Shown here: positions 7,626 to 63,500 of the stretch, in pieces | Numbering within the stretch: the first letter of the stretch is position 1 | Layout of the letters: each line of letters starts with the position of its first letter | From: Hormiphora californensis | Taxonomy: Eukaryota; Animalia; Ctenophora | Direction: 5' to 3' | DNA: 64,000 nt | NCBI GenBank assembly: GCA_020137815.1 | Contig: CM035358.1 | Coordinates: forward strand, 7,192,001-7,256,000 | Translations under genes and position numbers: made by a program | The notes under the pieces: model-generated | The model's input: only the letters and a program-made list of their open reading frames with translations | Databases searched by the model: none | Told to the model about the DNA's origin: nothing

Positions 7626-10600
7626 CTTCCTCTGTGCGGCATATTCCCCTTTCTTGGTAATAGACCATCTCTGTTGGTGTTACACTAGAAAGTAACAGCT
7701 CTCAACGCTGACCCTTGTTTGACCCCAGTTTTTCTCAACCGGCACTGTCTGACTCACTTAATCACTAGTGTATGTTAACAATCTCGATAACATGCAGAGC
7801 AGTTTTGTCAAACAAAGTTAATGTCGTGGTTTCGGGCACGGCCTCTAGACTGCGCCGTAGGGCACCTGTGATAGGTTTCAGACAGACTGACGAACTGGAG
7901 GGGGTAGCAAACAGGGAAGGGTACCCCGCCTAGCCAAGATCCTCTGGCCCTGGAGCGAGATCTCGGTAGGAGGGAAAAGTGAATGATAGGGGGTTGGGGA
8001 GGGGAGGGGATGGAACTAAGGGAGGGGAAGAGGTTGTGCTAGTTCCCGGTTGTTAGACATTTATAAACAATCTTATGTCTATATTGTCCTACAACCCGGA
8101 ACTGATGCAGGGATAAAACAGGGGTAAAATGATATTGAGTGAGATTGATCGTGAGGGCAAAGGTTAATACTATGGCATGGGTTGAGTGCGTGATGCCGCT
8201 AGGTCCAAATTTTACATGAGATACTGTTCTAGTGAATGGGTAGGAAGATTCAGATTCGCCCAATCGCTAGCCAGCCAATCGATACTCGATAGCCAACCGC
8301 CCAACCAGGTGATAAAGTGGTATGTTGGTGTACCGTGTATTCCAATCCACGCGGGAAGGGGCGGGAACTTCCCACTCCCCTCCGGGTAGATTAGAATGTA
8401 CCCATGTGCGAGAGCTGAGAGAGAGTGAAAGAGAGAAGGCAAGAGACGGAAGAGGGCTGAGAGGCCAAGAAGGGGATAGTAATTACAAAATAATATAAAC
8501 AAGAACTGGAAATACTGCCAAAGTGTAAATACAAGAGATTGAGGCCTGGGAAATCCCCGGGGTCCAACAGAGAGAGAAGAGAGAGAGAGAGAGAAAGGAA
8601 AAGAGAGAGAGAAGAAGAGGGGAAGAGAAGGAAAAGAGAGGGGAGGAGAAGAGAAGAGAAGAGGAGAGAGGAGCTAATTCAATTTTCTTCTCTATTACTC
8701 GCAGATCGCCCTTTCATAAGTATAGATCTCTTCTATCTCTCTCTCCTCTCCTCTATCCTCCTCTTATCTCTCTCTGCTCTCTCTCTCTCTCGGGTCTCCC
8801 CTCTCTCTCTCTCTCTCTCCTCCTCTTCTCTCGCTCTTCTCTCCTCTCCTCTTCCCTTTTCCTCTACTCTTTTTTCCCCCTCCCCCTTTTCACTGAAACT
8901 TGGGAATGACTTTGCTTTTTGGAGCTTTAATTACTTTTATTAAGTCCTTCAAATACTTTGGTGAAATTAGCGAGTGAACTCACCTCCTTATCGACATGCC
9001 CTGCAAATGAACTCCCTAGCAATAAGGGGTGTTAAGATATGTGATTATTATCGGTTTTCATGTCTTACCCTTGGTCGACCTGATTGGAATGGTATGGCTG
9101 ATTTGTGTACCAGTACAGGACCTGGGCGAGAGAGCGGCGACAAACAATCACGCCGAACCCACAAACTAAGAAGCAAACCCATCCAATCCCTGCTATACAC
9201 TACAGAACTAAGAACAAGGACCACCCACCCCTTCTCCCTTATTAGGGAGAACAAAACAGCCCTGATACGGGCAACACAAGCGGACCTATAAAAAACTAGG
9301 GGATCAGAAACCCTAGAACCGCACCCTCTCATCCCACAGAAAACTCTGCCAGGTCCTGAAATGAGTGCATGGTCTTACCCTTCCTTGAGCAGAAAACGTG
9401 CCCTGAAACATGTTGCCTAGAAAAGCTAGAACTAGGTATTAATAACAATACCGAGCCGGCTCTACAAAAACCCGCTGGGAAGTGTGACCGCCCTCCTACA
9501 TCATATACCACCACACACCAGCACAAGAAGGCTAGGGTCATCCGGAAATAAAGCTTTGATATTAGGGTACTACTAGGTTCTCAACCGGGTGGGGGGGGGT
9601 CAACCAGTAGTGGATAATAATATGAATGATAATAGTAATACAATGCAACATGACACAAAACGTATAACCAAAATGAGGGACAGCATACATGACGAAACCT
9701 AGAGAGACAAACATGACAATAATCAGCAGACTGACAACAACGTGACAAGTTTATCTGTTTTGATGCGATGGTTGCTTGTAGATCGATTTTGCCAGCTTTA
9801 CAGGAGGTTGGGTTGGTGTCCTCGTTGAAATACACACACACACTTTTCTCTCACACTATGTAATGTGTGATACTCTCTCAAATGTAAACAAATTTCAATA
9901 AAGGGGGTAGAGGTCCTTCCCGTGCAACGTAACAAAAAGTGGCAGTGAAAAGTATACGATCACTTGTCAGCTGAATTAAACTATTACAGTTGCAGTAGTA
10001 CATTAGTATAATTACCCTAATTAATTAGTTATTACCCTTCTGCGTCGCTTCCTCAGTAGTCTATTCTCTGGTTTTGAGTCCCTCTTCTCAGGATCCCCAG
10101 TTCCTCCTGTAAAGACTCGTTCCAACTTCCTTAGTCTCCTGTTGCTGTCTGTTTTGGATATCTTGGCCAGATATCGCTCTTGTTTCTTCTCGTACAGCTG
10201 GACAGGAAATATGTTGTAATTTTATTAAGCTGCTTCCGTTGGTGAATTTGTTTTCTCTTTCAAGATCACATAGCTTAGCGAACCTAGCTGTCAGAGCATT
10301 GGCCTGACTTATATGAGATAGGCAAACCTGATATTCAGTCATAGCAAGACGTTCCATGCTATCAATTACCTGATATTCAGTCATAGCAAGACGTTCCATG
10401 CTATCAATTACCTGATATTCAGTCATAGCAAGACGTTCCATGCTATCAATTACCTGATATTCAGTCATAGCAAGACGTTCCATGCTATCAATTACCTGAT
10501 ATTCAGTCATAGCAAGACGTTCCATGCTATCAATTACCTGATATTCAGTCATAGCAAGACGTTCCATGCTATCAATTACCTGATATTCAGTCATAGCAAG

Positions 10601-13600
10601 ACGTTCCATGCTATCAATTACCTGATATTCAGTCATAGCAAGACGTTCCATGCTATCAATTACCTGATATTCAGTCATAGCAAGACGTTCCATGCTATCA
10701 ATTACCTGATATTCAGTCATAGCAAGACGTTCCATGCTATCAATTACCTGATATTCAGTCATAGCAAGACGTTCCATGCTATCAATTACCTGATATTCAG
10801 TCATAGCAAGACGTTCCATGCTATCAATTACCTGATATTCAGTCATAGCAAGACGTTCCATGCTATCAATTACCTGATATTCAGTCATAGCAAGACGTTC
10901 CATGCTATCAATTACCTGATATTCAGTCATAGCAAGACGTTCCATGCTATCAATTACCTGATATTCAGTCATAGCAAGACGTTCCATGCTATCAATTACC
11001 TGATATTCAGTCATAGCAAGACGTTCCATGCTATCAATTACCTGATATTCAGTCATAGCAAGACGTTCCATGCTATCAATTACCTGATATTCAGTCATAG
11101 CAATTCCTGATATTCAGTCATAGCAAGGACGTTCCATGCTATCAATTACCTGATATTCAGTCCATAGCAAGACGTTCCATGCTATCAATTACCTGATATT
11201 CAGTCATAGCAAGACGTTCCATGCTATCAATTACCTGATATTCAGTCATAGCAAGACGTTCCATGCTATCAATTACCTGATATTCAGTCATAGCAAGACG
11301 TTCCATGCTATCAATTACCTGATATTCAGTCATAGCAAGACGTTCCATGCTATCAATTACCTGATATTCAGTCATAGCAAGACGTTCCATGCTATCAATT
11401 ACCTGATATTCAGTCATAGCAAGACGTTCCATGCTATCAATTACCTGATATTCAGTCATAGCAAGACGTTCCATGCTATCAATTACCTGATATTCAGTCA
11501 TAGCAAGACGTTCCATGCTATCAATTACCTGATATTCAGTCATAGCAAGACGTTCCATGCTATCAATTACCTGATATTCAGTCATAGCAAGACGTTCCAT
11601 GCTATCAATTACCTGATATTCAGTCATAGCAAGACGTTCCATGCTATCAATTACCTGATATTCAGTCATAGCAAGACGTTCCATGCTATCAATTACCTGA
11701 TATTCAGTCATAGCAAGACGTTCCATGCTATCAATTACCTGATATTCAGTCATAGCAAGACGTTCCATGCTATCAATTACCTGATATTCAGTCATAGCAA
11801 GACGTTCCATGCTATCAATTACCTGATATTCAGTCATAGCAAGACGTTCCATGCTATCAATTACCTGATATTCAGTCATAGCAAGACGTTCCATGCTATC
11901 AATTACCTGATATTCAGTCATAGCAAGACGTTCCATGCTATCAATTACCTGATATTCAGTCATAGCAAGACGTTCCATGCTATCAATTACCTGATATTCA
12001 GTCATAGCAAGACGTTCCATGCTATCAATTACCTGATATTCAGTCATAGCAAGACGTTCCATGCTATCAATTACCTGATATTCAGTCATAGCAAGACGTT
12101 CCATGCTATCAATTACCTGATATTCAGTCATAGCAAGACGTTCCATGCTATCAATTACCTGATATTCAGTCATAGCAAGACGTTCCATGCTATCAATTAC
12201 CTGATATTCAGTCATAGCAAGACGTTCCATGCTATCAATTACCTGATATTCAGTCATAGCAAGACGTTCCATGCTATCAATTACCTGATATTCAGTCATA
12301 GCAAGACGTTCCATGCTATCAATTACCTGATATTCAGTCATAGCAAGACGTTCCATGCTATCAATTACCTGATATTCAGTCATAGCAAGACGTTCCATGC
12401 TATCAATTACCTGATATTCAGTCATAGCAAGACGTTCCATGCTATCAATTACCTGATATTCAGTCATAGCAAGACGTTCCATGCTATCAATTACCTGATA
12501 TTCAGTCATAGCAAGACGTTCCATGCTATCAATTACCTGATATTCAGTCATAGCAAGACGTTCCATGCTATCAATTACCTGATATTCAGTCATAGCAAGA
12601 CGTTCCATGCTATCAATTACCTGATATTCAGTCATAGCAAGACGTTCCATGCTATCAATTACCTGATATTCAGTCATAGCAAGACGTTCCATGCTATCAA
12701 TTACCTGATATTCAGTCATAGCAAGACGTTCCATGCTATCAATTACCTGATATTCAGTCATAGCAAGACGTTCCATGCTATCAATTACCTGATATTCAGT
12801 CATAGCAAGACGTTCCATGCTATCAATTACCTGATATTCAGTCATAGCAAGACGTTCCATGCTATCAATTACCTGATATTCAGTCATAGCAAGACGTTCC
12901 ATGCTATCAATTACCTGATATTCAGTCATAGCAAGACGTTCCATGCTATCAATTACCTGATATTCAGTCATAGCAAGACGTTCCATGCTATCAATTACCT
13001 GATATTCAGTCATAGCAAGACGTTCCATGCTATCAATTACCTGATATTCAGTCATAGCAAGACGTTCCATGCTATCAATTACCTGATATTCAGTCATAGC
13101 AAGACGTTCCATGCTATCAATTACCTGATATTCAGTCATAGCAAGACGTTCCATGCTATCAATTACCTGATATTCAGTCATAGCAAGACGTTCCATGCTA
13201 TCAATTACCTGATATTCAGTCATAGCAAGACGTTCCATGCTATCAATTACCTGATATTCAGTCATAGCAAGACGTTCCATGCTATCAATTACCTGATATT
13301 CAGTCATAGCAAGACGTTCCATGCTATCAATTACCTGATATTCAGTCATAGCAAGACGTTCCATGCTATCAATTACCTGATATTCAGTCATAGCAAGACG
13401 TTCCATGCTATCAATTACCTGATATTCAGTCATAGCAAGACGTTCCATGCTATCAATTACCTGATATTCAGTCATAGCAAGACGTTCCATGCTATCAATT
13501 ACCTGATATTCAGTCATAGCAAGACGTTCCATGCTATCAATTACCTGGTATTCAGTCATAGCAAGACGTTCCATGCTATCAATTACCTGATATTCAGTCA

Positions 13601-14346
13601 TAGCAAGACGTTCCATGCTATCAATTACCTGATATTCAGTCATAGCAAGACGTTCCATGCTATCAATTACCTGATATTCAGTCATAGCAAGACGTTCCAT
13701 GCTATCAATTACCTGATATTCAGTCATAGCAAGACGTTCCATGCTATCAATTACCTGGTATTCAGTCATAGCAAGACGTTCCATGCTATCAATTACCTGA
13801 TATTCAGTCATAGCAAGACGTTCCATGCTATCAATTACCTGATATTCAGTCATAGCAAGACGTTCCATGCTATCAATTACCTGATATTCAGTCATAGCAA
13901 GACGTTCCATGCTATCAATTACCTGATATTCAGTCATAGCAAGACGTTCCATGCTATCAATTACCTGATATTCAGTCATAGCAAGACGTTCCATGCTATC
14001 AATTACCTGGTATTCAGTCATAGCAAGACGTTCCATGCTATCAATTACCTGATATTCAGTCATAGCAAGACGTTCCATGCTATCAATTTGACGAAATGCC
14101 TGGGCAAGTTGACTGTTCCCCATTAGCTGCACTGTCCTTTTCAACTGAAACAATATCATGATCAGAGTTGTAATGATAGCGGGGGGTTGTAACAAGTTGT
14201 AGATTATCTTTATCACAATATACCTTGATGAATCCTTTCAATGGAGACATGGCGATGGTGTTTCTATAGGTTTTGAAGTGATCAGCGGAGTGCGGTCCAC
14301 CACAATAAACGCTTTGAAAACTTGTCATGTTATCAGTCAACACCAT
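1852..14346 (-). CDS. Uncharacterised basic protein (at least 8 exons, at least 324 aa; last exon unresolved)
   Basis: Hand-spliced exons 14224-14346, 14049-14144, 10036-10197, 6905-7043, 6235-6367, 5666-5749, 2251-2330 and 1852-2006. All are GT-AG with matching phases and no stops (…KGFIK|LKRTVQL…MTEYQ|LYEKKQERY…|VVAKKRAG…|DYRTEPTK…|WKETTKQ…|DLHVSL…|ETLERRV…EIFK). It ends either by read-through (GTA TGA, ~1846) or with a further exon near 1600-1740. Confidence 0.65.
2372..4104. mobile_element. Non-autonomous hAT-like MITE interrupted by a TTAA element
   Basis: Termini TAGGGTTATC…GATAACCCTA with an exact 8-bp target-site duplication GAGGGCAG (2364-2371 and 4105-4112). Internal inverted arms at 2412-2440/4038-4068 and 3753-4032. 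Confidence 0.85.
2446..3747. mobile_element. Fold-back MITE with TTAA TSD (Kolobok-like)
   Basis: TTAA|GGGTACACCTGGCG…CGCCAGGTGTACCC|TTAA; ~610-bp near-perfect inverted arms, which explain the mirror-image ORFs 2657..2947 / 3247..3537. RR..YY termini with a TTAA TSD are typical of Kolobok. Confidence 0.85.
4125..5513. mobile_element. Fold-back MITE with TTAA TSD (Kolobok-like), related subfamily
   Basis: TTAA|GGGTACGCTAACC…GGTTAGCGTACCC|TTAA; ~600-bp inverted arms; shares internal blocks with 2446-3747. Confidence 0.85.
5768..6055. repeat. Intronic 30-bp minisatellite (~9.5 copies), each unit carrying an RFX X-box-like motif
   Basis: Unit GGTTACCATAGYAACAAGTATAAGGKWCAT, period 30. GTTACCATAGYAAC fits the X-box consensus GTNRCC(N0-3)RGYAAC. 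Confidence 0.85.
6344..6705. repeat. 74-80-bp tandem repeat (~5 copies) that duplicates a 3' splice site plus the exon start
   Basis: Copies of CCTTGGTAGGTTCAGTCCTGTAATCTAAACATG… begin at about 6344, 6424, 6498, 6578 and 6652. On the minus strand each reads …TTTAG|ATTACAGGACTGAACCTACCAAGG. Confidence 0.85.
7598..9952 (-). mobile_element. Non-autonomous/degenerate non-LTR retroposon insertion
   Basis: ~30-nt poly(A) tail on the minus strand (T-run 7596-7625). 13-bp direct repeat TATACGATCACTT at 7585-7597 and 9953-9965. An RT-like remnant KTGVKQGSAL (cf. GVxQGxxLS) lies ~90 nt upstream of the tail. No long ORF. Confidence 0.75.
10328..14087. repeat. 42-bp tandem array (~89 copies) covering an exon 3' end and 5' splice site
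   Basis: Minus-strand unit ATTGATAGCATGGAACGTCTTGCTATGACTGAATATCAG|GTA (IDSMERLAMTEYQV). Copies are nearly identical: an A>G variant in a few copies (~13548, ~13758, ~14010) and an irregular patch at 11100-11165. Confidence 0.95.
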
Positions 14347-51872: not shown

Positions 51873-54800
51873 TTATACTTCAACGAGAGGGGATGCTTCA
51901 TCAACTGCGTCAGTCTTAGGTGCAGCCCCATTCTTCTTTTTCTTTTTTGTTTCTTCATCGCTACTGGAGCTCCAGGACACTGAAATTAGGGGTGGAGGAC
52001 AGTTGTTTGATGGTGTACCTTTTTGGAAATGTCTATCGTTATCATCTTTATAAAGCTTTATGGAACACCCTCCACCCCACCCCGCCCTGCCCATAACCCC
52101 ACGCCGCCCTGCCAAACCCGCCCCGCCCGCAACATCCACACATAACCCATTCCGCCCTGCCCGTACCCAACCATCCCGCCCGCCCATCACCTCACCCCGC
52201 CCTGTCCGCCCATCCCCCACTCGCCCCCTTACCCCCACCCAATTTAACCTACCACTGTCGTATTCAATGTACTCTCTGAGTAACTCCATCATCTTCTTAT
52301 TCTTGTTATCGTATGCTACAGCGAGGCAGGTTCTCCCATCATAGTCCCCAACGTGCATATTAATACCTGCAGAAATATGACGTCACATTGTGTGGCACAT
52401 GGCTGTATGACGTCACATTGTGTGGCACATGGCTGTATGACGTCACATTGTGTGGCACATGGCTGTATGACGTCACAATGTGTGGCACATGGCTGTATGA
52501 CGTCACAATGTGTGGCACATGGCTGTATGACATGCAGCTCAGAATGTATTGGTGACATAGACACCTGGTCGCGCCAGGTGTCTATGTCACCAACAGAATA
52601 TATTGTATGACGTCACAGTGGTTCAGATTTGAGGAACATTTCGAACTGGATTGCAGTACGTGACACTACATGTATTGAGTTTAATGGGTTTTTGGTCGAT
52701 TATATTGGTTCCTTGCTGGTGGTATTTGGTTTCATGACCGGCTATAAACCAGCACTGTTAGTAGATAAGGGGCGTTATCAGCTGTTACTCAACAAGTTAT
52801 CAGGACATGTGTTGCGGCCACCACGCGGGGCCAAAGTAATTGAAGAAGTTTTAAAATATTTAAATAATCGAATTGAGAAACACGCCGACATGGGCTGATG
52901 CGTGCCCTGGTCAAATTTCAAGGTCTCAGCTTATCAATATTGACACGTTCTAGATACAGGTATCTTTTGTTAAGGGGTTCCCCCTTACTCAACAAGGTAT
53001 ATCTTATCAATATTGACACATTCTAGATCCAGGTATCTTTTGTTAAGGGGTTCCCCCTTACTCAACAAGGTATATCTTATCAATATTGACACGTTCTAGA
53101 TACAGGTATCTTTTGTTAAGGGGTTCCCCCTTACTCAACAAGGTATATCTTATCAATATTGACACATTCTAGATCCAGGTATCTTTTGTTAAGGGGTTCC
53201 CCCTTACTCAACAAGGTATATCTTATCAATATTGACACATTCTAGATCCAGGTATCTTTTGTTAAGGGGTTCCCCCTTACTCAACAAGGTATATCTTATC
53301 AATATTGACACGTTCTAGATACAGGTATCTTTTGTTAAGGGGTTCCCCCTTACTCAACAAGGTATATCTTATCAATATTGACACGTTCTAGATCCAGGTA
53401 TCTTTTGTTAAGGGGTTCCCCCTTACTCAACAAGGTATATCTTATCAATATTGACACATCAATCCGTCGTGGCCAAATTAAGTGATGGATTAGGGACCCC
53501 AACTACAATTTATCACCGAGCTGTACATGAACAGCTAATTGATATACTCAGTATGATATCACTGACCTGCTTCAACAAGTCGTTGGATCATTTCAAAGTC
53601 GTTATTGACAACAGCCCAACAAAGTTCCTGCACCTGCATTTCCATAGCAAGACACAGCTGGGCCCCCTCATCAAGAAGGAAATCACACAGCTGATCGTGC
53701 TTGTGACGACACGCCTCTAGTAGGGGCGAGTTACCAAACCTGCAATGGACCAAATGTAGTTATATGAAGGAGTACTATTTGGTTTGATGAAGGAGCAGAA
53801 TTGATGAGAGTATTGCACCTGTCGATAGCATTAAAGTTTCCGTTATGCCAAACTATTGTTTTAGCACTGTCCAAATCTCCAACAGCACAGGCTATGTGAA
53901 GGGGGCTCCTCAAATCGTAATCACAGATATTCATATCAATCAAAACGTTCTCTTTAATGAGGCGCTCCAATATAGCGTGCTCCTTCATAAAGACAAGTTC
54001 GCAGATAAGGGATGGGAGAAGTGCAACAATTTTATGTTTTTCATTCCCCCTCAACAACTGCCGGATGATGGCCTCTAAAACCTCTGGGTCAATTGTTAGA
54101 TTGTGGCCACCTGAGTGGCTATCGTTCAATCGTTGTCTCATACCTTCAGTCGTCATATCACGGCGATCTGAAAAGGTTGAATGACATAGTAGTTAATTAG
54201 TAGGTCTTATATTTTTAGACATCGTTAAATTATATATCTAGTACAGATAATCCCACTATATTAGTTCAGTGCAGATTAGTAAAGCACATAAAAACAGCAT
54301 GGCAGATACTACTACTACTCCGAGTTGAACAATGGAACATGACTTACTTCGTTTCACATCTTTGACTGGTTCTAAATCGTGGACAGTTTCCCCATAACAC
54401 TCTGAGGGTTTCTTGCCCCACCTGTCCTCAATTTCCTTCTTAGGTGCATACCGACCCAGAAACTTGATAATTCTGGAGGGAATTGGAGGGAATTGGAGGG
54501 AATTGGAGGGAATTGGAGGGGATTGGATTGGAGTATTGGAGGGGGTTGAAGGGAATTGGAGGGGATTGAAGGGAATTGGAGGGGATTGAAGGGAATTGGA
54601 GGGAATTGGAGGGAATTGGAGGGAATTGGAGGGGATTGAAGGGAATTGGAGGAGATTGGAGGGGAGTGGAGGAAATTGGAGGGAATTGAAGGGGATTGGA
54701 GGGAATTGAAGGGGATTGGAGGGAATTGGAGGGAATTGGAAGGGAATTGGAGGGAATTGGAGGGAATTGAAGGGGATTGGAGGGAATTGGAGGGAATTGG

Positions 54801-57800
54801 ATTGGAGGGGATTGAATGGAATTGGAGGGAATTGGAGGGGATTGGAGGGAATTGAAGGGGATTGGAGGGGATTGGAGGGGATTGGAGGGAATTGGAGGGG
54901 ATTGGAGGGAATTGGAGGGGATTGGAGGGAATTGAAGGGGATTGGAGGGAATTGGAGGGAATTGGATTGGAGGGGATTGGAAGGGATTGGAGGAGATTGG
55001 AGGGGAGTGGAGGAAATTGGAGGGAATTGAAGGGGAGTGGAGGGGAGTGGTGGGAATTGGAGGGGATTGGAGGGAATTGGAGGGGATAGGAGGGGATTGG
55101 AGGGGATTGGATTGGAGGGGATTGGAAGGGATTGGAGGGGATTAGAGGGGATTGGATTGGAGGGGATTGGAGGGGATTGGAGGGGATTGGAGTATTGGAG
55201 GGGATTGGAGGGGATTGGAGGGAATTGGAGGGAATTGGAAGGGATTGGAGGGGATTGGAGGGGATTGGAGGGGATTGGAGGGAATTGGATTGGAGTATTG
55301 GAAGGGATTGGAAGGGATTGGAGGGGATTGGAGGGGATTGGAGGGGATTGGAGGGGATTGTAGGGAATTGGAAGGGATTGGAAGGGATTGGAGGGGATTG
55401 GAGGGGATTGGAGGGGATTGGAGGGGATTGGAGGGGATTGGAGGGAATAGGAGGGAATTGGAGGGGATTGGAGGGGGTTGGAGGGGATTGGAGGGCATTG
55501 GATAGTTGGCTAGCTGTATTAGCTAGATTGTTATTGGCTGAACCCCCCCCCCCCCCCCCGTTTTCGGTGCAGGAAAACGTTAAAATCTGATGTAGACTTT
55601 GGTTGGAATGCGCTACAAAGTTAAAGGGGCCTGCAGCGTATGCCAAAGAGTTTAGAGACACGTGAAAGAGCTGGGCCCCAACTCTTTCACGTGTCTCTAA
55701 ACTCTTTGGCATACGCTGCAGGCCCCTTAACTCAGTTGGGCATTATCTTTCAACTGACCTGTCATTCTTCTTTGAGTAAGCCACGTGAAGGGGTGTCCTG
55801 TTATCATAGTCAGTTGAGTTCGGATCAGCTCCGCACTCCAACCAAATCTGTAGCCTCTCTAAATCATCATGGGCTACCATGTAACAAAGCATGGAGGAAA
55901 TCTTGCTCTTTTTCATCCTTATCCTGCCACCTGGTGATAGGGTCGTGTGAGAGAGTTTTATAGCTTAGTTCCTTCCTTATTGAGAAATATATGTTTCTAC
56001 CAAATAAAACATTGAACCTATAGATGTCCTAACATATCAATTAGTATATCATGTACCTACCCTCTTTAAAGATGGATTTGGCGAGTTTAAAGTGGCTATG
56101 AAGTAGAGCTGAACTGAGAGCGTTATTGTTCCAGTTGTCCATTTTGTGTATATCTGCCTGGTATTTTAGCAGTAGAGTCACAATATTGGTCTTGTTCTCA
56201 GCACACGCAATGTGAAGTGCACATCGGCCATCGTAGTCACTGGGAGGGGAAGGGAGGGAGTTGTTGGGTTGTGACACCAAGAAGAGCTGGTTGGGAAAAT
56301 CAGATCAATGATCATGATTCATAAAGGTTGTTCAAAGTGAACATTCCTAATTGTCTCCCTTTAAGATGCACTACATGATGACTTGAAGTGGTTTGTCATG
56401 TTTGAACAAGTATACCTAGCATTAGGATCAGCTCCAAGATCAAGAAGATCTTTCAGAAGGGCCTCATAGTCATTCTTAGCGTAAGCACATAGCAGAATCG
56501 GCAAGATACTACTCTCAATATTCCTGCAGGTGGGGAAATGGATCATGAGAAATTAGAATCAAAATCAATATCAGATTCTAAAGTCTAAATCCCCTGAATT
56601 TTAAATTGCTATCAAGTGTCAAATGTATCCTGTACCTGTAAGCGGATGGGTTAACTCGACCGTGGTCACTGATCCTCAGATCCATAATAATCTTTTGGGA
56701 CAGGATGAACCTTCGGACGTGGTCTTCTGGAGTCGTCACAGCCATCAGCTCTACCTGCAGGGGTGTTGGTAATTGAGTGATTTCAACCTCAGGTTCATGT
56801 CCCCACTGTTCCCCTCCCCTCTGTGGGCTCTATCTACACACCTGTATAACACCTCTTGCTAAGAGATCTAGTGGTACACACCTGTAATATATCTACCTAT
56901 CTACAAACCTGTATAATAACACCTCTTGCTAAGAGATCTACGCACCTGTAATATACGGGGGAAGGATCCTCCTGTGATGTAGAGCATGATAACTATTAGA
57001 TAAGCAGCGATGGGTGCAGATGTAGATAGGTCAAACACCTCAAACATTGAGTTTAGTACCATCGCAAGAGTTGTAGTCAGGAAACACGCCATACAACCAA
57101 CCAACACTGAAATTATGTGGCGGAATGTGGTGTGAGTCAGGAAATATAGGGTCGGGGGAAATGTCGGGGAACTGATCCCTCACATGGTGATTTGTGTCAG
57201 ATAACAAGTTCCCTTTGGATAGCTAGCTCGGTATAATTATAATAGAGCTCTATAACTCACCAGAGTGGACGGAGAGAACAAAGTAGAGTCCTCCGATACT
57301 CATCATAGTAATTGCAGAAGGGAATATCAGCATTTTATCTCCGATATCCTCCCACAGGGGACTGAGGAGGATGGAACTAGCTGCTCCCATGGCAACGCCC
57401 AACCAGGACATAAGGAAGAGGATTGGAGAGGACACCAGGAGACCAATAGCAATGGGGATCGCTGCTTCCCACTTTTCAGAGAACACTAGCCCACTGAATC
57501 CCTTGTAGAATAGGATTCCAAACTGTGTAGCATTCACCTGGAAGGAGGGGGATAGAGGAGAGATTAGGTACTTGGGGACTAGGAGAGAGGAGATTGGGTC
57601 AAAACATCACTATTGGAGAGATGAGAAATATTAGTGTTTATCAAATTACTTGGACTACTAGGTAATTAATTATAAACCAACTAATTAAGTAATAACCTGA
57701 CAGTCATGATCCCCCATACAGTTCACAAAGAATTTCATATTGTCCTGATCAACATCCAGTGAAGATGCCTCGAACTCTTTATTGAACATGTATGTAGACT

Positions 57801-59153
57801 GGGTCTTCAGGGTGTAGAAAGCAAACCCGACCAGAGCTGGAGCAAGAAAGAGAGGAGTGGTCCGAAGGCTGAAGGAGGAGGTTGGAAGTAAGGTTGTTAA
57901 AGTTATCAAGGTTAAGAACATAAAAAAATTAAAAGTTTCTCAACTCACGTTCTGACGAGGAATGTGCCTATAGCTTGAAACACAATCAGAGTTAGGAAAG
58001 TGACGGGAACTAGAACTGCAAGCTGAATTAGCTGACTCTTCATGTCTGTTGAGTCGTTAGAAACATACACTAACATTCCCAGTAACACTCCTGAATAGAA
58101 TTTAGTTAAAACTGGAACAATATCAGTTACCATGGTTACCATGCCTAGTTACTATGTGGTTACCTAGTTACCAACTATTTTACCTTGCGATGGGTAGAGG
58201 CCGTTGTTTATTTGTTCATCAGGCACCCCCAGATAGAAAGCCCAGAGACCAACCCCAATAACACACCATGAGACGTAAAGCACTAGGTATTCACTGGAGA
58301 GAGAAGATGAAGTCAGTAGGACACGAGATGATTATCCTCGTCCACACAGTGGCTGTACAGTTGAAAAGTATAAACACACAAATGATATCTAATCTAATAT
58401 CTAATCAGGCGCGTTGTAAAACACATTTACCTTTCTAAGCAGAGTGAGATGAAGACACAGAGTCCAAGGAATGGGTTACTGATCCCCAGCCACATCCCTA
58501 GCGACCTCAGGAAGGCAAATATAACTGAGAAAAGAGAACTGCAGTTAGTTATTTGAAAACTCGGAATTGAGACATGGTATAGTTTCTTCTCCATTGGAAC
58601 CCCTCAACTGATATGATTTCTCTGACGAGGGGAACCCCTCACTGAAAACAACTCGAACCCTCCATTTACCATTCAGGAAGGTGTAACCCCGGATGAGCTG
58701 ATGAAAGTCTGGCATTGTTCCAGAGAGATATCTCCATGTTGGTTTAGATACCCTTTTAAAGCGGTTCAGGTATGAGGGGTTCCATGGGGATATCTCAGAG
58801 AAATCGAGGTAGAGTTCTCGATCTGTATTCTGGAATGCCTCCCTGTAACGAGGTGCGGTATTAATTAATTATAATTATAATTTCAAATACCAAGCAAGTT
58901 AGGTTATATCCCAAACATGTATAGTGCTGGATCAAACAGTGAAATTATAATGCTCCCTATAATTGCAAGTGTGAAATCCCGTGAAACACTGATGTAACGC
59001 TGATGGGGAACACAAGCTGGGAGAAATCCCGTGAAACATAATAAGCTGGGAAAATCCCGGGGGGAAATATTTGCGACACACTACTCACTCCACGTAAAGC
59101 GACTCGGAAGGTGCCTTAGCAGGCATTAACGCAGCAGGAGCAGGTCGAGTCAT
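51873..59153 (-). CDS. Urea-transporter (SLC14/UT)-like membrane protein fused to ~10 ankyrin repeats, ~879 aa, 17 exons
   Basis: Exons 59089-59153, 58670-58842, 58431-58524, 58184-58293, 57949-58090, 57697-57868, 57261-57537, 56946-57106, 56636-56754, 56416-56523, 56061-56239, 55759-55930, 54348-54472, 53819-54167, 53567-53739, 52253-52366 and 51873-51979 total 2640 nt; all GT-AG, phases match, no internal stop. UT-like landmarks: YLSGTMPDF, FLRSLG…SNPFLG, QINNGLY, IGLLVSSP, VTTPEDH, with ~10 hydrophobic segments. Ankyrin motifs: GADPNASDYDGRCALH, GADPNSTDYDNRTPLH, CDYDLRSPLH, DRFGNSPL, GDYDGRTCL. Confidence 0.85.
52378..52532. repeat. 30-bp intronic tandem repeat (5 copies) containing TGACGTCA
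   Basis: TGACGTCACAWTGTGTGGCACATGGCTGTA x5, immediately upstream of a 3' splice site on the minus strand. Confidence 0.9.
52930..53458. repeat. 73-bp intronic tandem repeat (~7 copies)
   Basis: CTTATCAATATTGACACRTTCTAGATMCAGGTATCTTTTGTTAAGGGGTTCCCCCTTACTCAACAAGGTATAT. Contains the dispersed motif CCCTTACTCAACAAG, also seen at ~22108 and ~50600. Confidence 0.9.
54474..55500. repeat. 10-bp minisatellite (GGAGGGGATT/GGAGGGAATT)n in an intron
   Basis: ~1 kb of degenerate decamers abutting the acceptor at 54473. Confidence 0.95.
55625..55726. mobile_element. Tiny TTAA-flanked hairpin element
   Basis: 45-bp perfect arms GGGGCCTGCAGCGTATGCCAAAGAGTTTAGAGACACGTGAAAGAG with an 11-nt loop; TTAA at 55621-55624 and 55727-55730. 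Confidence 0.7.
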
Positions 59154-59510
59154 GTTAGGGGAAAGAGAAAATATTCAATATTGGAAGATGAAGTGAGAAG
59201 AAGTGAGGGTGTGTTATATGTTCAGTGGAAGAAGAGAAATGTTTGTTTTGCATATAATCAGGGGTGAACCAGGCACTAGCCAGGGTGGGGGATGAATAAA
59301 CACTGAAGGGACAGGGTGGTATCAATACCATGGCATGGGTGGGATATTTTTATTTCAAGTCTCCTGGCCCTGCATGTTCAATGTTAATTGGATCATTAAT
59401 TTTTTCAGGATATGCCTCCATTGTTTGAGGGGCCCGCAGCGTTGACAATTGACATGTTCATAGTCTGTCAGCTCTCACACTGGGCCAAAGGCCCAGTATG
59501 AGCTTATGCG

Positions 59511-60534
59511 AGTCACCCCCTCCCTGCCGACGGACCTCCCTGCCGACGGGTCGGCAGGGAGGTCATTCGGCAGGGAGGGCGGGATATGGGGGTATAATGT
59601 CCTACGTGCCGACGAAATTGGGATGAGATCGCCGTCGGCACGTAGGACATTATACCCCTATTTTCTGCCCTCCCTGCCGACGGACCTCCCTACCGATCGG
59701 CAGGGAGGGCCGTCGGCAGGGAGGACATTTTACCCCTCCTTTTACCCTCTGTACCGACGATCGGCAGGGAGGACATTTTACCCCTCCTTTTACCCTCTGT
59801 ACCGACGATCGGCAGGGAGGACATTTTACCCCTCCTTTTACCCTCTGTACCGACGATCGGCAAGTAGGGCCGTCGGAAGGGAGGACATTTACCCCTCCTT
59901 TTCAGCCTCACTACCGACGATCGGCAGGGAGGACATTTACCCCTCCTTTTCACCCTCTGTGCCGACGAAACCACAACCCAAACTTAGCCCAAACCATCGC
60001 CCTAACCATCACCCTAACCACCGCCCTAACCACCACCCTAACCCTAACCCTAACCACCGCCCTAACCCTAACCCTAACCCTAACCCTAACCCTAACCCTA
60101 ACCCTAACCCTAACCCTAACCCCAACCCTAACCCTAACCCTAACCCTAACGATACTCAGAGGAACAATACACAGTGAACTCTTCGTATTTGGCCTGCCGG
60201 CCAAATTCTCGAGCTCACAGAAGGAGTGAAACGCCCTCCCTACCGATCGTCGGTACAGAGGGTAAAAGGAGGGGTGAAATATCCTCCCTGCCGATCGTCG
60301 GTACAGAGGGTGAATAGGAGGGGTAAATGTCCTCCCTGCCGAATACTCTCTTGGAGTGAGTTTTCGGCAGGGAGGGCGGAATATAGGGGTCAAATGTCCT
60401 ACGTGCCGACGGCGATCTCATCCCAATCTCGTCGGCACGTAGGACATTATACCCCTATATCCCGCCCTCCCTGCCGAATGACCTCCCTGCCGACGAGTCG
60501 GCAGGGAGGTCCGTCGGCAGGGAGGGCGGGTACC
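59511..60534. mobile_element. Fold-back element with internal repeats and an interstitial telomeric array
   Basis: ~150-bp inverted arms built from CCCTGCCGACG/CGTCGGCAGGG. Internal ~50-bp repeats occur in opposite orientations either side of (CCCTAA)n. Flanking near-direct repeat GCTTAYGCG at 59502-59510 and 60535-60543. Confidence 0.75.
59995..60150. repeat. Interstitial telomeric-type repeat (CCCTAA)n
   Basis: Degenerate CCCTAACCAYCR units grading into ~15 almost pure CCCTAA units. Confidence 0.95.
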
Positions 60535-63500
60535 GCTTACGCGAGCCCGATCGCCGAATGGACAGACTGTGTAGCATTGAAACAGCATATGTTAACTGAC
60601 AACAAGTATAGTGGGGTCTGCAGCGCATGCCAACTGAACTCTGAAACCACTTTAGAGCTGGGTCCGCAGCGTTTGCCACTTTGAAACCACTAGTTCACCT
60701 GTGTAAATGATGCACGCCAAAGTTATGTGGGTAGACCTGCATGGATCTCAAATCAACGATAGAACAACGGAGACTATTCCGAATAGTATTCGATGAAACA
60801 GAAACTTTAACTATTCGATCGGATGATGCAACGTAGAAAACTGGTCGAATAATCTGGAACAAGATAGAAGGATGCGTGACAAAAAATGGTCAAACGGAAA
60901 AAGAGTGAGCAAGATACTCGTGTAGTACGTGGTCGAGGCTGTGTATTAACACAGCCATCATGGAACATGCTTATGAAGTCCTGTGGAAGACGGGCCAGGC
61001 TGTGCAGGTCATCTCTACAGAGCCTGTACAAATTTACATGCAATATCCATGAGTGGAAGTGGTAGTAGAAGTCAATCATTCTGAATAAAGAGATCTGAGC
61101 AAGAATTAAATCAGAAGTCATGTCAATCAGTTGAACATTTAAGTGGTATTTCATGCAGATTGGGCCCTCTTATTGTGCATCGCTGGAATTCACAATGTTT
61201 CTCACAGCACAAAACTATGTGAAATTCAATTTCCGAACTGCAGCTGTCTACAAACAGCAGCTGCTTCAAGCAGTGCTTGGAATGTCAAACAGATGTTTAG
61301 AAAGAGCTATCAATAGTGACTGTCACTATCGTATGTGTGAAACGGCCGAACATCAAGTGTATTATTATTGGTACAGCGAATACAATTTTGCTGTATTTTA
61401 TACAATTACCAGTTCGGCAGAGGTGATTATTTTGGGTAGTTCACAGACAATTAGAGGTCCGCGGGGATAAACTTACTTTTCAGTAAAATCCAGGGCGCTC
61501 ATCAAGTATTAATTGCCTTCAGATTATCGCTGAAAACTATAGATGAGTTAAAATAAAATTAGTTAAACTTCAAAAGAACTAAAAACAAAACAATAAACGT
61601 TCTTTCCAAGTCTAAACTACATTGGCAAGCACAGCATTTTGTCTGCATTCAGACCTCCGGAATATGTTTCAACGTGTTGGTGGCCGTGTGATATAATGGA
61701 TATTGTCTGACAACATTCTATAGAGTATACAGTGTATCTAGTAGGTTTACCTATATCATATGCTCCCTGTATATTCAAGTACTATAAAAACCATGTCCCA
61801 AATACAAGAAGCCCAATTCGTAAGCAGTCTAACAAGCAGTTGGCGCAATCAAGCAAAAGTACACGTGGCCATCAGAGACTGTATGCATTTGATAATTAAT
61901 TAATTCCACGAATATAGCGGAGTCTGCAGTACATTCTCAGAGTATTAATGGATTAACTCACATGGGAATTAACACAGTTGCACAAGGAGTACACATGGCT
62001 TAGAAGCAAATACAACGTGCACGTATAACAACTGTACACATGGTGGTGACAGGAAAAGATCTCAAGTTAATTACTGGCAATTACCGGGCAATCACCAGGC
62101 CCCACACAACTAATAGCAAGGAGGAAGATGTTCTTAATTGGCCCTTATTACTTAATACTCATAACATGGGGCATTTTGGCCAAAGAACTTCCAAAGAAAC
62201 ATGGCATATTATTATATTAACATTGGCATATTTTCCCTCTATCATTGGAATGCTAAGGGGTCGCTAGAGAAGGAAGACAATTTACAGACATAAAATATCC
62301 CATAATTATTCACAAACATTACTTTTCCTTAGCAGTGGAAGGCGTATTGATTTGCAGAAGTTCCACTGGAACTTCTGCAAATCAATACGCCGACCAAGAG
62401 CTCCAAAGAGCTCTAACTTTACCTATTCATACCTTAGACGGGTTAGAAACACCGTGTGCTTCACACACAGCAATAACAAATACACAGTAACACACACAGT
62501 ATCACATAGGTCGGAAGTGTGTTGGTAGTACACTCGCCAAATCAGTTCTGTATCCGTGTCTAGCACACTGATACACACTGACACAGAGTTGCCTTTACAG
62601 ACACTGAATCAACCAATAAATCAGACAGCAGTAGTAGTAGTACAATATGCTATAAAATTACACTATGGGAAACTCCATTTCCCTAAATTAATTTCTGAAT
62701 TAGTTCCATCTGGGGGTCGTGCCAGGTGTCACCAATTCCATCATCAGTTCATTATCATGAGAATCTAGGCAGCTATATCGATAGGAACTATAATACCGCA
62801 CACAGTTTAGTTGTATCATTTATTACTACATATTTAATTATATAATAATATGCTACAGGGTCTAGTGGCAGAATATGCAAAAATATGTCTCTGGATAAAT
62901 GCCATCACTAGTTTGTCGGGGAGAGGAGGCCGGGTTTGTCGGGGAGGGGAGACCGGGTGGGCTGAATAACTTCCCATGAAATGGCCGGGGAGTGGTGAGT
63001 TGGTGAATAAGATGTGAAGCTGATGTGACTGTGAAGCAGACATGAAGTGAAAATGTTTATTTTAGAACCAGGGAGGCCAGGGAGAGATAGAAAGGAGAAT
63101 GGGCTAGGGAGAGATAGAGAGTGGAGAATGGGAGGCCAGGGAGAGATAGAGAGGAGAATGGGCCAGGAGGGAAGGACTATGGATGTATGGATCGTACAAA
63201 GTAAACAGGCCCATACACAAACACTGTGAACCAGAGGAAAAGAAAGAGGGGCTGGAGAGCCGGAGAGTGGGATAATATCTAAATCAGATATTATTATAGG
63301 ACATGAGTGAGTTCGACTGGGTAACTAGGGCCCATGTTCGACAGGATGGGCCCCTGATATATTACTGCAACATGCAATCAAAGAAACCATGGCCCTTCGA
63401 GAGACCCTGTGACACAGGGTCTGTGTACTATTGCCATTGAGATCAAGAGCACATATCAAATGGAATGATATTGGAGCAGCGACACATTGCGAACGTTTCA

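Follow-up and report, generated by a model that had tools for sequence, protein, structure and literature searches.

A minus-strand gene in a 64,000-nucleotide (nt) window of the genome of the ctenophore Hormiphora californensis (assembly GCA_020137815.1, contig CM035358.1, positions 7,192,001-7,256,000; all coordinates below are positions in this window) encodes a membrane protein that appears to have retained the fold of the urea transporters (UTs) while losing most of the residues through which these proteins pass urea, and that carries a long ankyrin tail. UT channels are known to conduct urea strictly and passively through a filter that hardly varies, and a conserved clade that possesses the fold without the filter, such as the one to which this gene belongs, provides a natural test of other uses to which the UT fold may be put. 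The fusion of UT and ankyrin domains is an already published architecture; what is new here is the loss of the pore residues and the kinship of the gene with genes of giant viruses.

A predicted urea transporter fold joined to a duplicated ankyrin module

The gene runs from 59153 to 51873, and splicing by coordinates joins its 17 exons into 2640 nt encoding 879 amino acids (aa) with an open frame and a single terminal stop. All 16 introns have GT-AG borders. The open reading frame proposed by an initial annotation made from the sequence alone was thus recovered intact, with all 11 of the motifs it had quoted at the expected places. When 15 exons were scanned individually against Pfam, exon 7 matched the UT family (PF03253) at 36.8 bits (cut-off 25; E 3e-9), whereas ankyrin families were matched above cut-off by exons 11, 12, 14 and 15 and weakly by exons 10 and 16. 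The N- and C-terminal landmarks of the UT domain align with those of solved UTs. As a stand-in for the window protein we used an AlphaFold2 model of its Bolinopsis microptera orthologue (66% identical in the membrane part), which was built from a 43-sequence alignment and reached a predicted local distance difference test score (pLDDT) of 78 and a predicted template modelling score of 0.74; an earlier model from a 3-sequence alignment was unusable (pLDDT 39.9). The model superposes on human UT-A with Z 42.6 and a root-mean-square deviation (rmsd) of 2.3 Å over 343 residues, and across the solved UTs (human UT-A 8BLO and 8XDE, UT-B 8XDF and Desulfovibrio dvUT 3K3F) Z is 42.6, 42.2, 41.8 and 38.2, respectively, with an rmsd of 2.1-2.3 Å over 326-348 residues. 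The next fold class is that of the ankyrins, from Z 15.9, and Foldseek agrees (TM 0.83-0.89 by target). A ten-helix, two-pore-helix UT fold is therefore predicted for the window protein, in keeping with the earlier suggestion that the fold was retained. A search of the Atlas returned nothing but short ankyrin clusters, and the 50 matches listed by Foldseek against viral models were solely to ankyrins.

The tail of about 440 aa consists of two copies of one module (31% identical over 159 aa, E 5e-26), and its attachment to the membrane domain is documented by a single RNA contig that leads from exon 9, which holds the C-terminal UT landmark, through exons 10-13 and into exon 14. Both results uphold the view that this is one gene with a doubled ankyrin module. 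The tail is similar to those of the potassium channels SKOR and GORK (E 1e-25 to 5e-25) and to glutaminase ankyrins (Z 15.4). Among 22 ankyrin-only top matches picked by hand from 150, eight carry an ion-channel domain, four more a cyclic nucleotide monophosphate (cNMP) domain and one an asparaginase. The tail is of the kind that regulated channels carry.

The urea relay appears to be missing from the pore

The path of urea through a UT is given as Q231-T338-T176-Q67 (UT-A2 numbers), the urea-binding motifs being Q67/V68/Y123/T176 and Q231/V232/F287/T338; main-chain carbonyls of the pore helices bind urea irrespective of the side chain (PMC11589576). Changing threonine to valine brings the flux of urea, water and NH3 down to control level (PMC12171576; PMC3869693).

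We placed the pore sites of the window protein by alignments to solved UTs and by a 34-row alignment, and found that, as aligned, it keeps 0/4 residues of the Gln-Thr-Thr-Gln relay. In pore helix Pa, Met90 stands at Q67, with Trp91 at V68 and Gly93 at Phe70, and Pro145 occupies the position of Gly122 further on; in Pb, Gly268 stands at Q231. The first threonine (T176, helix 5a) corresponds to Phe202 or Leu203, so that neither register offers a threonine, and the second (T338, helix 5b) to Ala375, Pro376 or Ile377 depending on the register, there being a one-residue insertion and a serine, Ser374, one place upstream. One member of the aromatic pair is replaced (Ser146 at Y123) and the other kept (Phe324 at F287). 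By alignment, then, both glutamines, the first threonine and Tyr123 are gone, and the second threonine is probably gone as well, its register being unsure. The initial annotation had all of the pore motifs replaced, which slightly overstates the case at the retained Phe324, the F287 of UT-A2, and at the second threonine.

Relay loss extends across a clade

Annotated orthologues in other ctenophores are likewise single UT-ankyrin proteins (Bolinopsis microptera, 914 aa; Mnemiopsis leidyi, 824-1039 aa); they match PF03253 at 42.9-65.7 bits, and their identity to the window protein is 63-66% for the membrane part and 65% for the tail. A gene model of Pleurobrachia bachei agrees with the exon-7 peptide at 98% identity. 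The ctenophore-type side comprises three groups, namely that of the window gene, a second made up of P0065 (Pleurobrachia), P0166 and L008, and a third made up of P0006 and P0186. No canonical ctenophore UT was among the homologue-search matches, a search that did not extend to a whole ctenophore genome. P0006 and P0186 run for about 660 codons without interruption and stop at an identical place in the second ankyrin module, a shared endpoint that suggests a eukaryotic paralogue whose first exon is very long; the contig that carries P0006 measures 545 kb. One annotated isoform of the Mnemiopsis protein P0176 opens with about ten near-identical 15-residue repeats that resemble the start of exon 2.

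Residues were counted in 16 clade rows, 15 other rows and two basal rows of the alignment, accepting Glu for Gln and leaving uncounted one row that lacks a UT part. None of the relay is kept in 15/16 clade rows (P0065 spans just one site) and a single residue in the remaining one, as compared with all four in 12/15 of the other rows, where one further row keeps three and has a gap and two keep two; the basal rows keep zero and one. In 13 other aligned UT-ankyrin rows the canonical pore is mostly kept. Relay loss is clade-wide in these sequences and is hence not decay in one genome.

Several positions are invariant in the clade alone (clade vs canonical rows: Gly93, 15/15 vs 0/13; Pro145, 15/15 vs 0/15; Trp297, 15/15 vs 0/15; His69, 15/15 vs 0/13). 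Aromatic side chains have been lost from the pore, with Phe70 replaced by Gly (15/15), Tyr123 by Ser or Val (15/15) and Phe341 by Ala, Ser or Gly (16/16), although the last site is also Ser, Ala or Gly in 5/15 canonical rows. Val68 has become Phe or Trp in 14/15 clade rows and the first threonine Met, Phe or Leu in 10/15. The second threonine site is Ala without an insertion in 12/16, and Ser or Thr is found at 374 in 5/5 rows of two paralogue groups. The outer Gln site varies more freely, being Gly in the window protein, Tyr in Bolinopsis and Mnemiopsis, and occupied by five different residues across the clade.

Mean pairwise identities among five clade representatives and among five canonical proteins show where each set is the more uniform. 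The clade is more alike in the N-terminal segment (0.54 vs 0.17), the 3a motif (0.66 vs 0.59) and the C-terminal landmark (0.52 vs 0.39), and less alike in 5a (0.32 vs 0.52), 3b (0.25 vs 0.51) and 5b (0.32 vs 0.52). By the topology of UT-A2 and UT-B, the three stretches in the first set would lie on the cytoplasmic face, where the newly invariant residues would also be grouped.

Outside the clade, L016 has lost both threonines separately and L022 one, and pore erosion has therefore happened more than once. The UT-ankyrin transcripts L016:360-2717 and L013:346-2685 are open only under table 6, a ciliate-type code. Two further proteins, P0187 and P0188, join the UT domain to EF-hand-type or unassigned tails; they have the C-terminal linker motif of the ankyrin forms and keep the canonical pore.

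Giant-virus genes are the closest outside relatives found

Among the best 150 matches listed by phmmer against 1.84 billion representatives were full-length relatives at 31-43% identity. One of these, P0013, has 99% identity with a gene without introns that lies on a giant-virus contig, and the relative on a second such contig equals P0179. The two genomes, GVMAG-S-1059906-5 and GVMAG-S-1059904-8 (our loci L001 and L002), belong to lineage MGVL30, measure 812 and 868 kb, contain 14 and 16 of 20 marker genes, and are both listed with ammonium transporters (PMC7162819). Neighbouring genes encode Ras, RING, OTU, ferritin, NUDIX and RPB9-like proteins, at 25% guanine plus cytosine (GC). A link to a named giant-virus contig exists for P0013 and P0179 only; six other rows are called virus-like on the basis of 65-83% or about 40% identity to P0013 and an AT-biased composition, to which L004, L006 and L009 add dense intronless neighbours. 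Scans of viral contigs with P0148, P0033, P0019 and P0181 gave no match, and P0148 was not found in prokaryote genomes.

The ctenophore-type and viral genes form one clade with Shimodaira-Hasegawa-like approximate likelihood ratio test (SH-aLRT) support of 97 on the UT part (33 rows) and 98 on the tail (32 rows), and with 100/100 support on both parts combined (19 rows, after 15/34 were dropped as partial, redundant, long-branched or tailless). Forcing the ctenophore-type genes together with three holozoan protists costs 340 log units and is rejected by the approximately unbiased test (p 8e-83), the tested grouping having been named only after the trees were seen. Given the long stem and a difference in base composition, long-branch pull could still be the cause of the clade; higher identities in the UT part (26-33% vs 18-25%) and shared derived residues point the same way as the trees. 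The viral rows form a group of their own (support 91-95) that is sister to the ctenophore side with no nesting, and the long-branched P0033 and P0148 fall outside both sides, also when each is run alone. In the viral copies the nonsynonymous rate (dN) was below the synonymous rate (dS) in 12/12 comparisons by a crude method on AT-rich sequence, with crude dN/dS in the UT part of 0.32-0.38 for three closer pairs and 0.48-0.59 for three distant ones, a pattern of codon change that marks these copies as being under purifying selection.

From these comparisons, giant-virus genes are the closest relatives of the window gene among those found outside its own group, and the gene has likely been swapped between animals and viruses, in either direction. 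On the giant-virus-like contig L006 (4492-13467, 28% GC), the UT-ankyrin gene lies beside an anthranilate synthase fusion (665 aa), a ceramidase and a 1225-aa fusion of four tryptophan-pathway domains, which together with the anthranilate synthase makes up a nearly full tryptophan pathway.

Gene structure and transcripts

The window gene is a spliced and transcribed ctenophore gene. RNA contigs from three studies show the splice joints of introns 2, 3 and 9-16 (10/16), one sequencing run, X4, having contributed just one 50-nt piece. Introns 4-8 have no RNA cover, which is not evidence against them, and they include one of the junctions at issue in the initial annotation, which had placed three named exons in one transcript: RNA joins 56636-56754 to 56416-56523, whereas the junction of 56946-57106 with 56636-56754 is without cover.

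The start of the gene is less settled. Exon 1 of the initial annotation has an open frame and a GT donor, but no RNA covers it, and one thin 151-nt contig (depth 2.2) instead links exon 2 to an exon ending at 61477, whose ATG at 61502 is preceded by an in-frame stop and would yield a version of 866 aa (Table 1). The contig behind the 61477-61536 exon carries a second copy of 25 of its own letters and may be an assembly or library artefact. Because the Bolinopsis orthologue has three first-exon isoforms, both first exons may be in use here.

Table 1. Exons of the UT-ankyrin gene, with the basis for each
Feature	Position	Strand	Basis and remarks
Alternative first exon, coding part	61477..61502	-	ATG 61502; GTAAGT donor; phase as exon 2; transcribed to at least 61536; one RNA contig, depth 2.2; frame check
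Exon 1 of the initial annotation (aa 1-22), possible alternative first exon	59089..59153	-	open frame, GT donor; without RNA cover
Exon 2 (aa 22-80), cytoplasmic N-terminal segment, most clade-specific conserved stretch	58670..58842	-	splicing, RNA, alignment
Exon 3 (aa 80-111), pore helix Pa; Met90/Trp91/Gly93 at Gln/Val/Phe sites	58431..58524	-	splicing, RNA, alignment
Exon 4 (aa 111-148), helix 2a and 3a motif; Pro145/Ser146 at Gly/Tyr sites	58184..58293	-	splicing, RNA, alignment
Exon 5 (aa 148-195), membrane helices	57949..58090	-	splicing, alignment; without RNA cover
Exon 6 (aa 195-252), helix 5a with Phe202 or Leu203 at the first Thr site, plus linker	57697..57868	-	splicing, alignment; without RNA cover
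Exon 7 (aa 253-345), Pb pore helix with Gly268 at its Gln site; 3b motif retaining Phe324, with Pro325 in place of Asn	57261..57537	-	Pfam UT match, alignment; without RNA cover
Exon 8 (aa 345-398), helices 4b-5b, with replacement or shift of the second Thr site	56946..57106	-	splicing, alignment; without RNA cover
Exon 9 (aa 399-438), UT C-terminal landmark and linker helix	56636..56754	-	RNA joint to exons 10-14; aligns with C-terminus of UT-A and dvUT
Exon 10 (aa 438-474), start of ankyrin module 1	56416..56523	-	Pfam, RNA
Exon 11 (aa 474-534), ankyrin module 1	56061..56239	-	Pfam, RNA
Exon 12 (aa 534-591), ankyrin module 1	55759..55930	-	Pfam, RNA
Exon 13 (aa 591-633), end of module 1 and linker	54348..54472	-	RNA
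Exon 14 (aa 633-749), linker and start of ankyrin module 2	53819..54167	-	Pfam, RNA
Exon 15 (aa 749-807), ankyrin module 2	53567..53739	-	Pfam, RNA
Exon 16 (aa 807-845), end of ankyrin module 2	52253..52366	-	Pfam, RNA
Exon 17 (aa 845-879 and stop), low-complexity tail; 3' untranslated region runs beyond 51700	51873..51979	-	splicing, RNA

No second copy of the gene was found in the window by tblastn with seven relatives. The introns hold tandem arrays at 52376-52531 (30 bp x 5.2), 52930-53459 (73 bp x 7.3) and 54474-55502 (10 bp x 104), and within the alternative first intron, at 59460-60560, a 48-bp repeat element flanks a telomere-like (TTAGGG)n tract at 60000-60150. Elsewhere in the window, a long tandem array at 10091-14237 (unit about 42 bp) has stop-free frames of about 1000 codons on both strands and is probably non-coding, and a 173-codon open frame of protein-like composition on the minus strand at 255-773 is probably an exon of a neighbouring gene.

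Discussion

The replacement of the relay makes it quite probable that the window protein is not a classical urea channel. What it does instead is harder to say, and we tentatively and narrowly favour a sensor or regulator that is coupled to the ankyrins and works at the cytoplasmic side of the membrane, because constraint in the clade is concentrated on that side, where the ankyrins attach, while the outer pore site varies between orthologues. According to this view, an ancestral UT-ankyrin channel, such as remains intact in holozoan and other protists, would have founded a lineage that gained the conserved N-terminal segment, freed the outer pore half from constraint and remodelled the inner pocket (in UT-A2 numbering, Phe70 became Gly, Gly122 became Pro, Tyr123 became Ser and Val68 became Phe/Trp). 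The linker helix might then relay ligand binding or the state of the membrane at the inner pocket to the ankyrin modules, and these would bind partners. The viral copies would be accounted for by one move of the gene between MGVL30-type giant viruses and either the ctenophore lineage, an unsampled relative or a shared host. Several observations weigh against a sensor. Most of the fixed inner-side changes remove aromatic side chains and could equally widen a conducting pore; pore-helix carbonyls bind urea whatever the side chain (PMC11589576), and Phe324 is kept; Ser/Thr374 might replace the second threonine in a region where the confidence of the model is low (block mean pLDDT 64); and the ammonium transporters of both giant-virus genomes (PMC7162819) fit nutrient flux better than sensing.

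Close behind is a possible, if somewhat doubtful, re-tuned channel, in which the pore would conduct a bulkier or less polar solute such as an amine, ammonia or a gas under the gating of the ankyrin tail. The removal of the slot-forming aromatics (the changes at Phe70, Tyr123 and Phe341) would suit such a pore, as would the full retention of the predicted UT fold (343 residues, rmsd 2.3 Å) and the fact that nutrient transporters are common in giant viruses, with ammonium transporters in these two genomes. The bulky residues now at Val68 and at the first threonine could refill the space, however, conservation of the outer half is poor, in contrast to a selective filter, and the change at Phe341 is shared with a third of the canonical rows.

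It is improbable that the protein still conducts urea (or water and ammonia) by other chemistry, using the pore-helix carbonyls and a shifted Ser or Thr. The Pfam match above cut-off, the UT fold, the retained Phe324 and Ser/Thr374 near the second threonine site would all be in keeping with this, and the animal may need this gene if it has no canonical UT, none having appeared among the homologue-search matches, although a search of ctenophore genomes for canonical UTs was not part of the analysis. Single changes of threonine to Val or Ala already abolish or cut flux, however (PMC12171576; PMC11589576), and here four polar sites and Tyr123 are altered, the second threonine being Ala without any insertion in most of the clade. 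More improbable still is a non-conducting regulatory subunit that co-assembles with UT-fold paralogues, or in the case of the viral copy with a host channel, and tunes or blocks it. UTs are trimers (PMC12171576), there are at least three related paralogue groups, two of them with Pleurobrachia members, and viral mimicry of a host channel subunit would account for retention; yet the relay is missing from all ctenophore-side paralogues found, so that no conducting partner is known. An artefact, whether two adjacent genes merged in the gene model or a UT pseudogene in decay next to an ankyrin gene, would draw on the lack of RNA cover over introns 4-8 and is largely refuted by the RNA that joins exon 9 to the ankyrin exons, by annotated orthologues in three ctenophores that are single proteins, by the one open frame of the intronless viral and transcript copies, and by the 63-66% identity to orthologues in both parts.

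The shared ancestry adds a membrane protein to the host-like genes of viruses and connects the ctenophore branch with a lineage of uncultured viruses. A fuller scenario, which we regard as unlikely on present evidence though worth stating, is that the genes are a ctenophore family of UT-fold pseudo-channels or transceptors, with an inner pocket that signals via the ankyrins, exchanged with marine giant viruses, possibly from a virus to a ctenophore ancestor, and then furnished with introns and duplicated. If the family is virus-derived, it would give one of the earliest animal branches a membrane signalling gene of giant-virus origin, and would be the first gene-based hint that MGVL30-type viruses infect, or formerly infected, the ctenophore lineage. 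In the literature searched, which excludes most subscription papers, we found no account of the relay-less clade, its presence in ctenophores or its sharing with giant viruses, and the words urea and ankyrin are absent from the main text of the Mnemiopsis gene-transfer paper. A preprint names a urea transporter, its fold not given in the portion available, among genes of alga-infecting giant viruses (10.64898/2026.09.08.750034), and may bear on the viral claim.

The UT-ankyrin architecture itself, which the initial annotation had supposed to be undescribed, was published in 2026: ankyrin repeats are the commonest partner of UT domains, with 25 hits in rotifers, arthropods and alveolates (Table S3 of PMC12998343). 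It is thus widespread, but not yet characterised, as regulation by the ankyrin tail is merely speculated on there. Compared by description only, those proteins (for example UniProt A0A814UYH3) likewise have a UT domain followed by C-terminal ankyrins; no pore analysis was found in the available portions of that report, unlike here, and neither ctenophores nor viruses are mentioned in its searched text and two supplement files. No rotifer or arthropod protein was named among our homologue-search matches listed.

Relative to the SLC14/UT family (PF03253), the window protein shares the fold and the N- and C-terminal landmarks, and differs in its low identity (18-21%), in the replacement of the urea motif and the relay, and in the 440-aa tail. 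The giant-virus genes share its architecture, rebuilt inner-pore residues and N-terminal segment, with identities of 29-30% for the UT part and 35-36% for the tail, and differ in being intronless, 25% GC and about 800 aa long, with only an automatic annotation ('ankyrin repeat protein/urea transporter'). The plant Shaker channels SKOR, GORK and AKT1, glutaminase and ankyrin-bearing asparaginase have the same ankyrin subtype by sequence and fold, whereas here the module is duplicated and sits on a UT fold without a cNMP-binding or enzyme domain. The two-module fusion also occurs in Capsaspora (CAOG_00074), Chromosphaera, the choanoflagellate Acanthoeca and many protist-like sequences. The first three have the same two-module tail and linker motifs, but keep all four relay residues, are 18-22% identical in the UT part and fall outside the ctenophore grouping, and the canonical Capsaspora and choanoflagellate proteins offer ready controls for the role of the tail.

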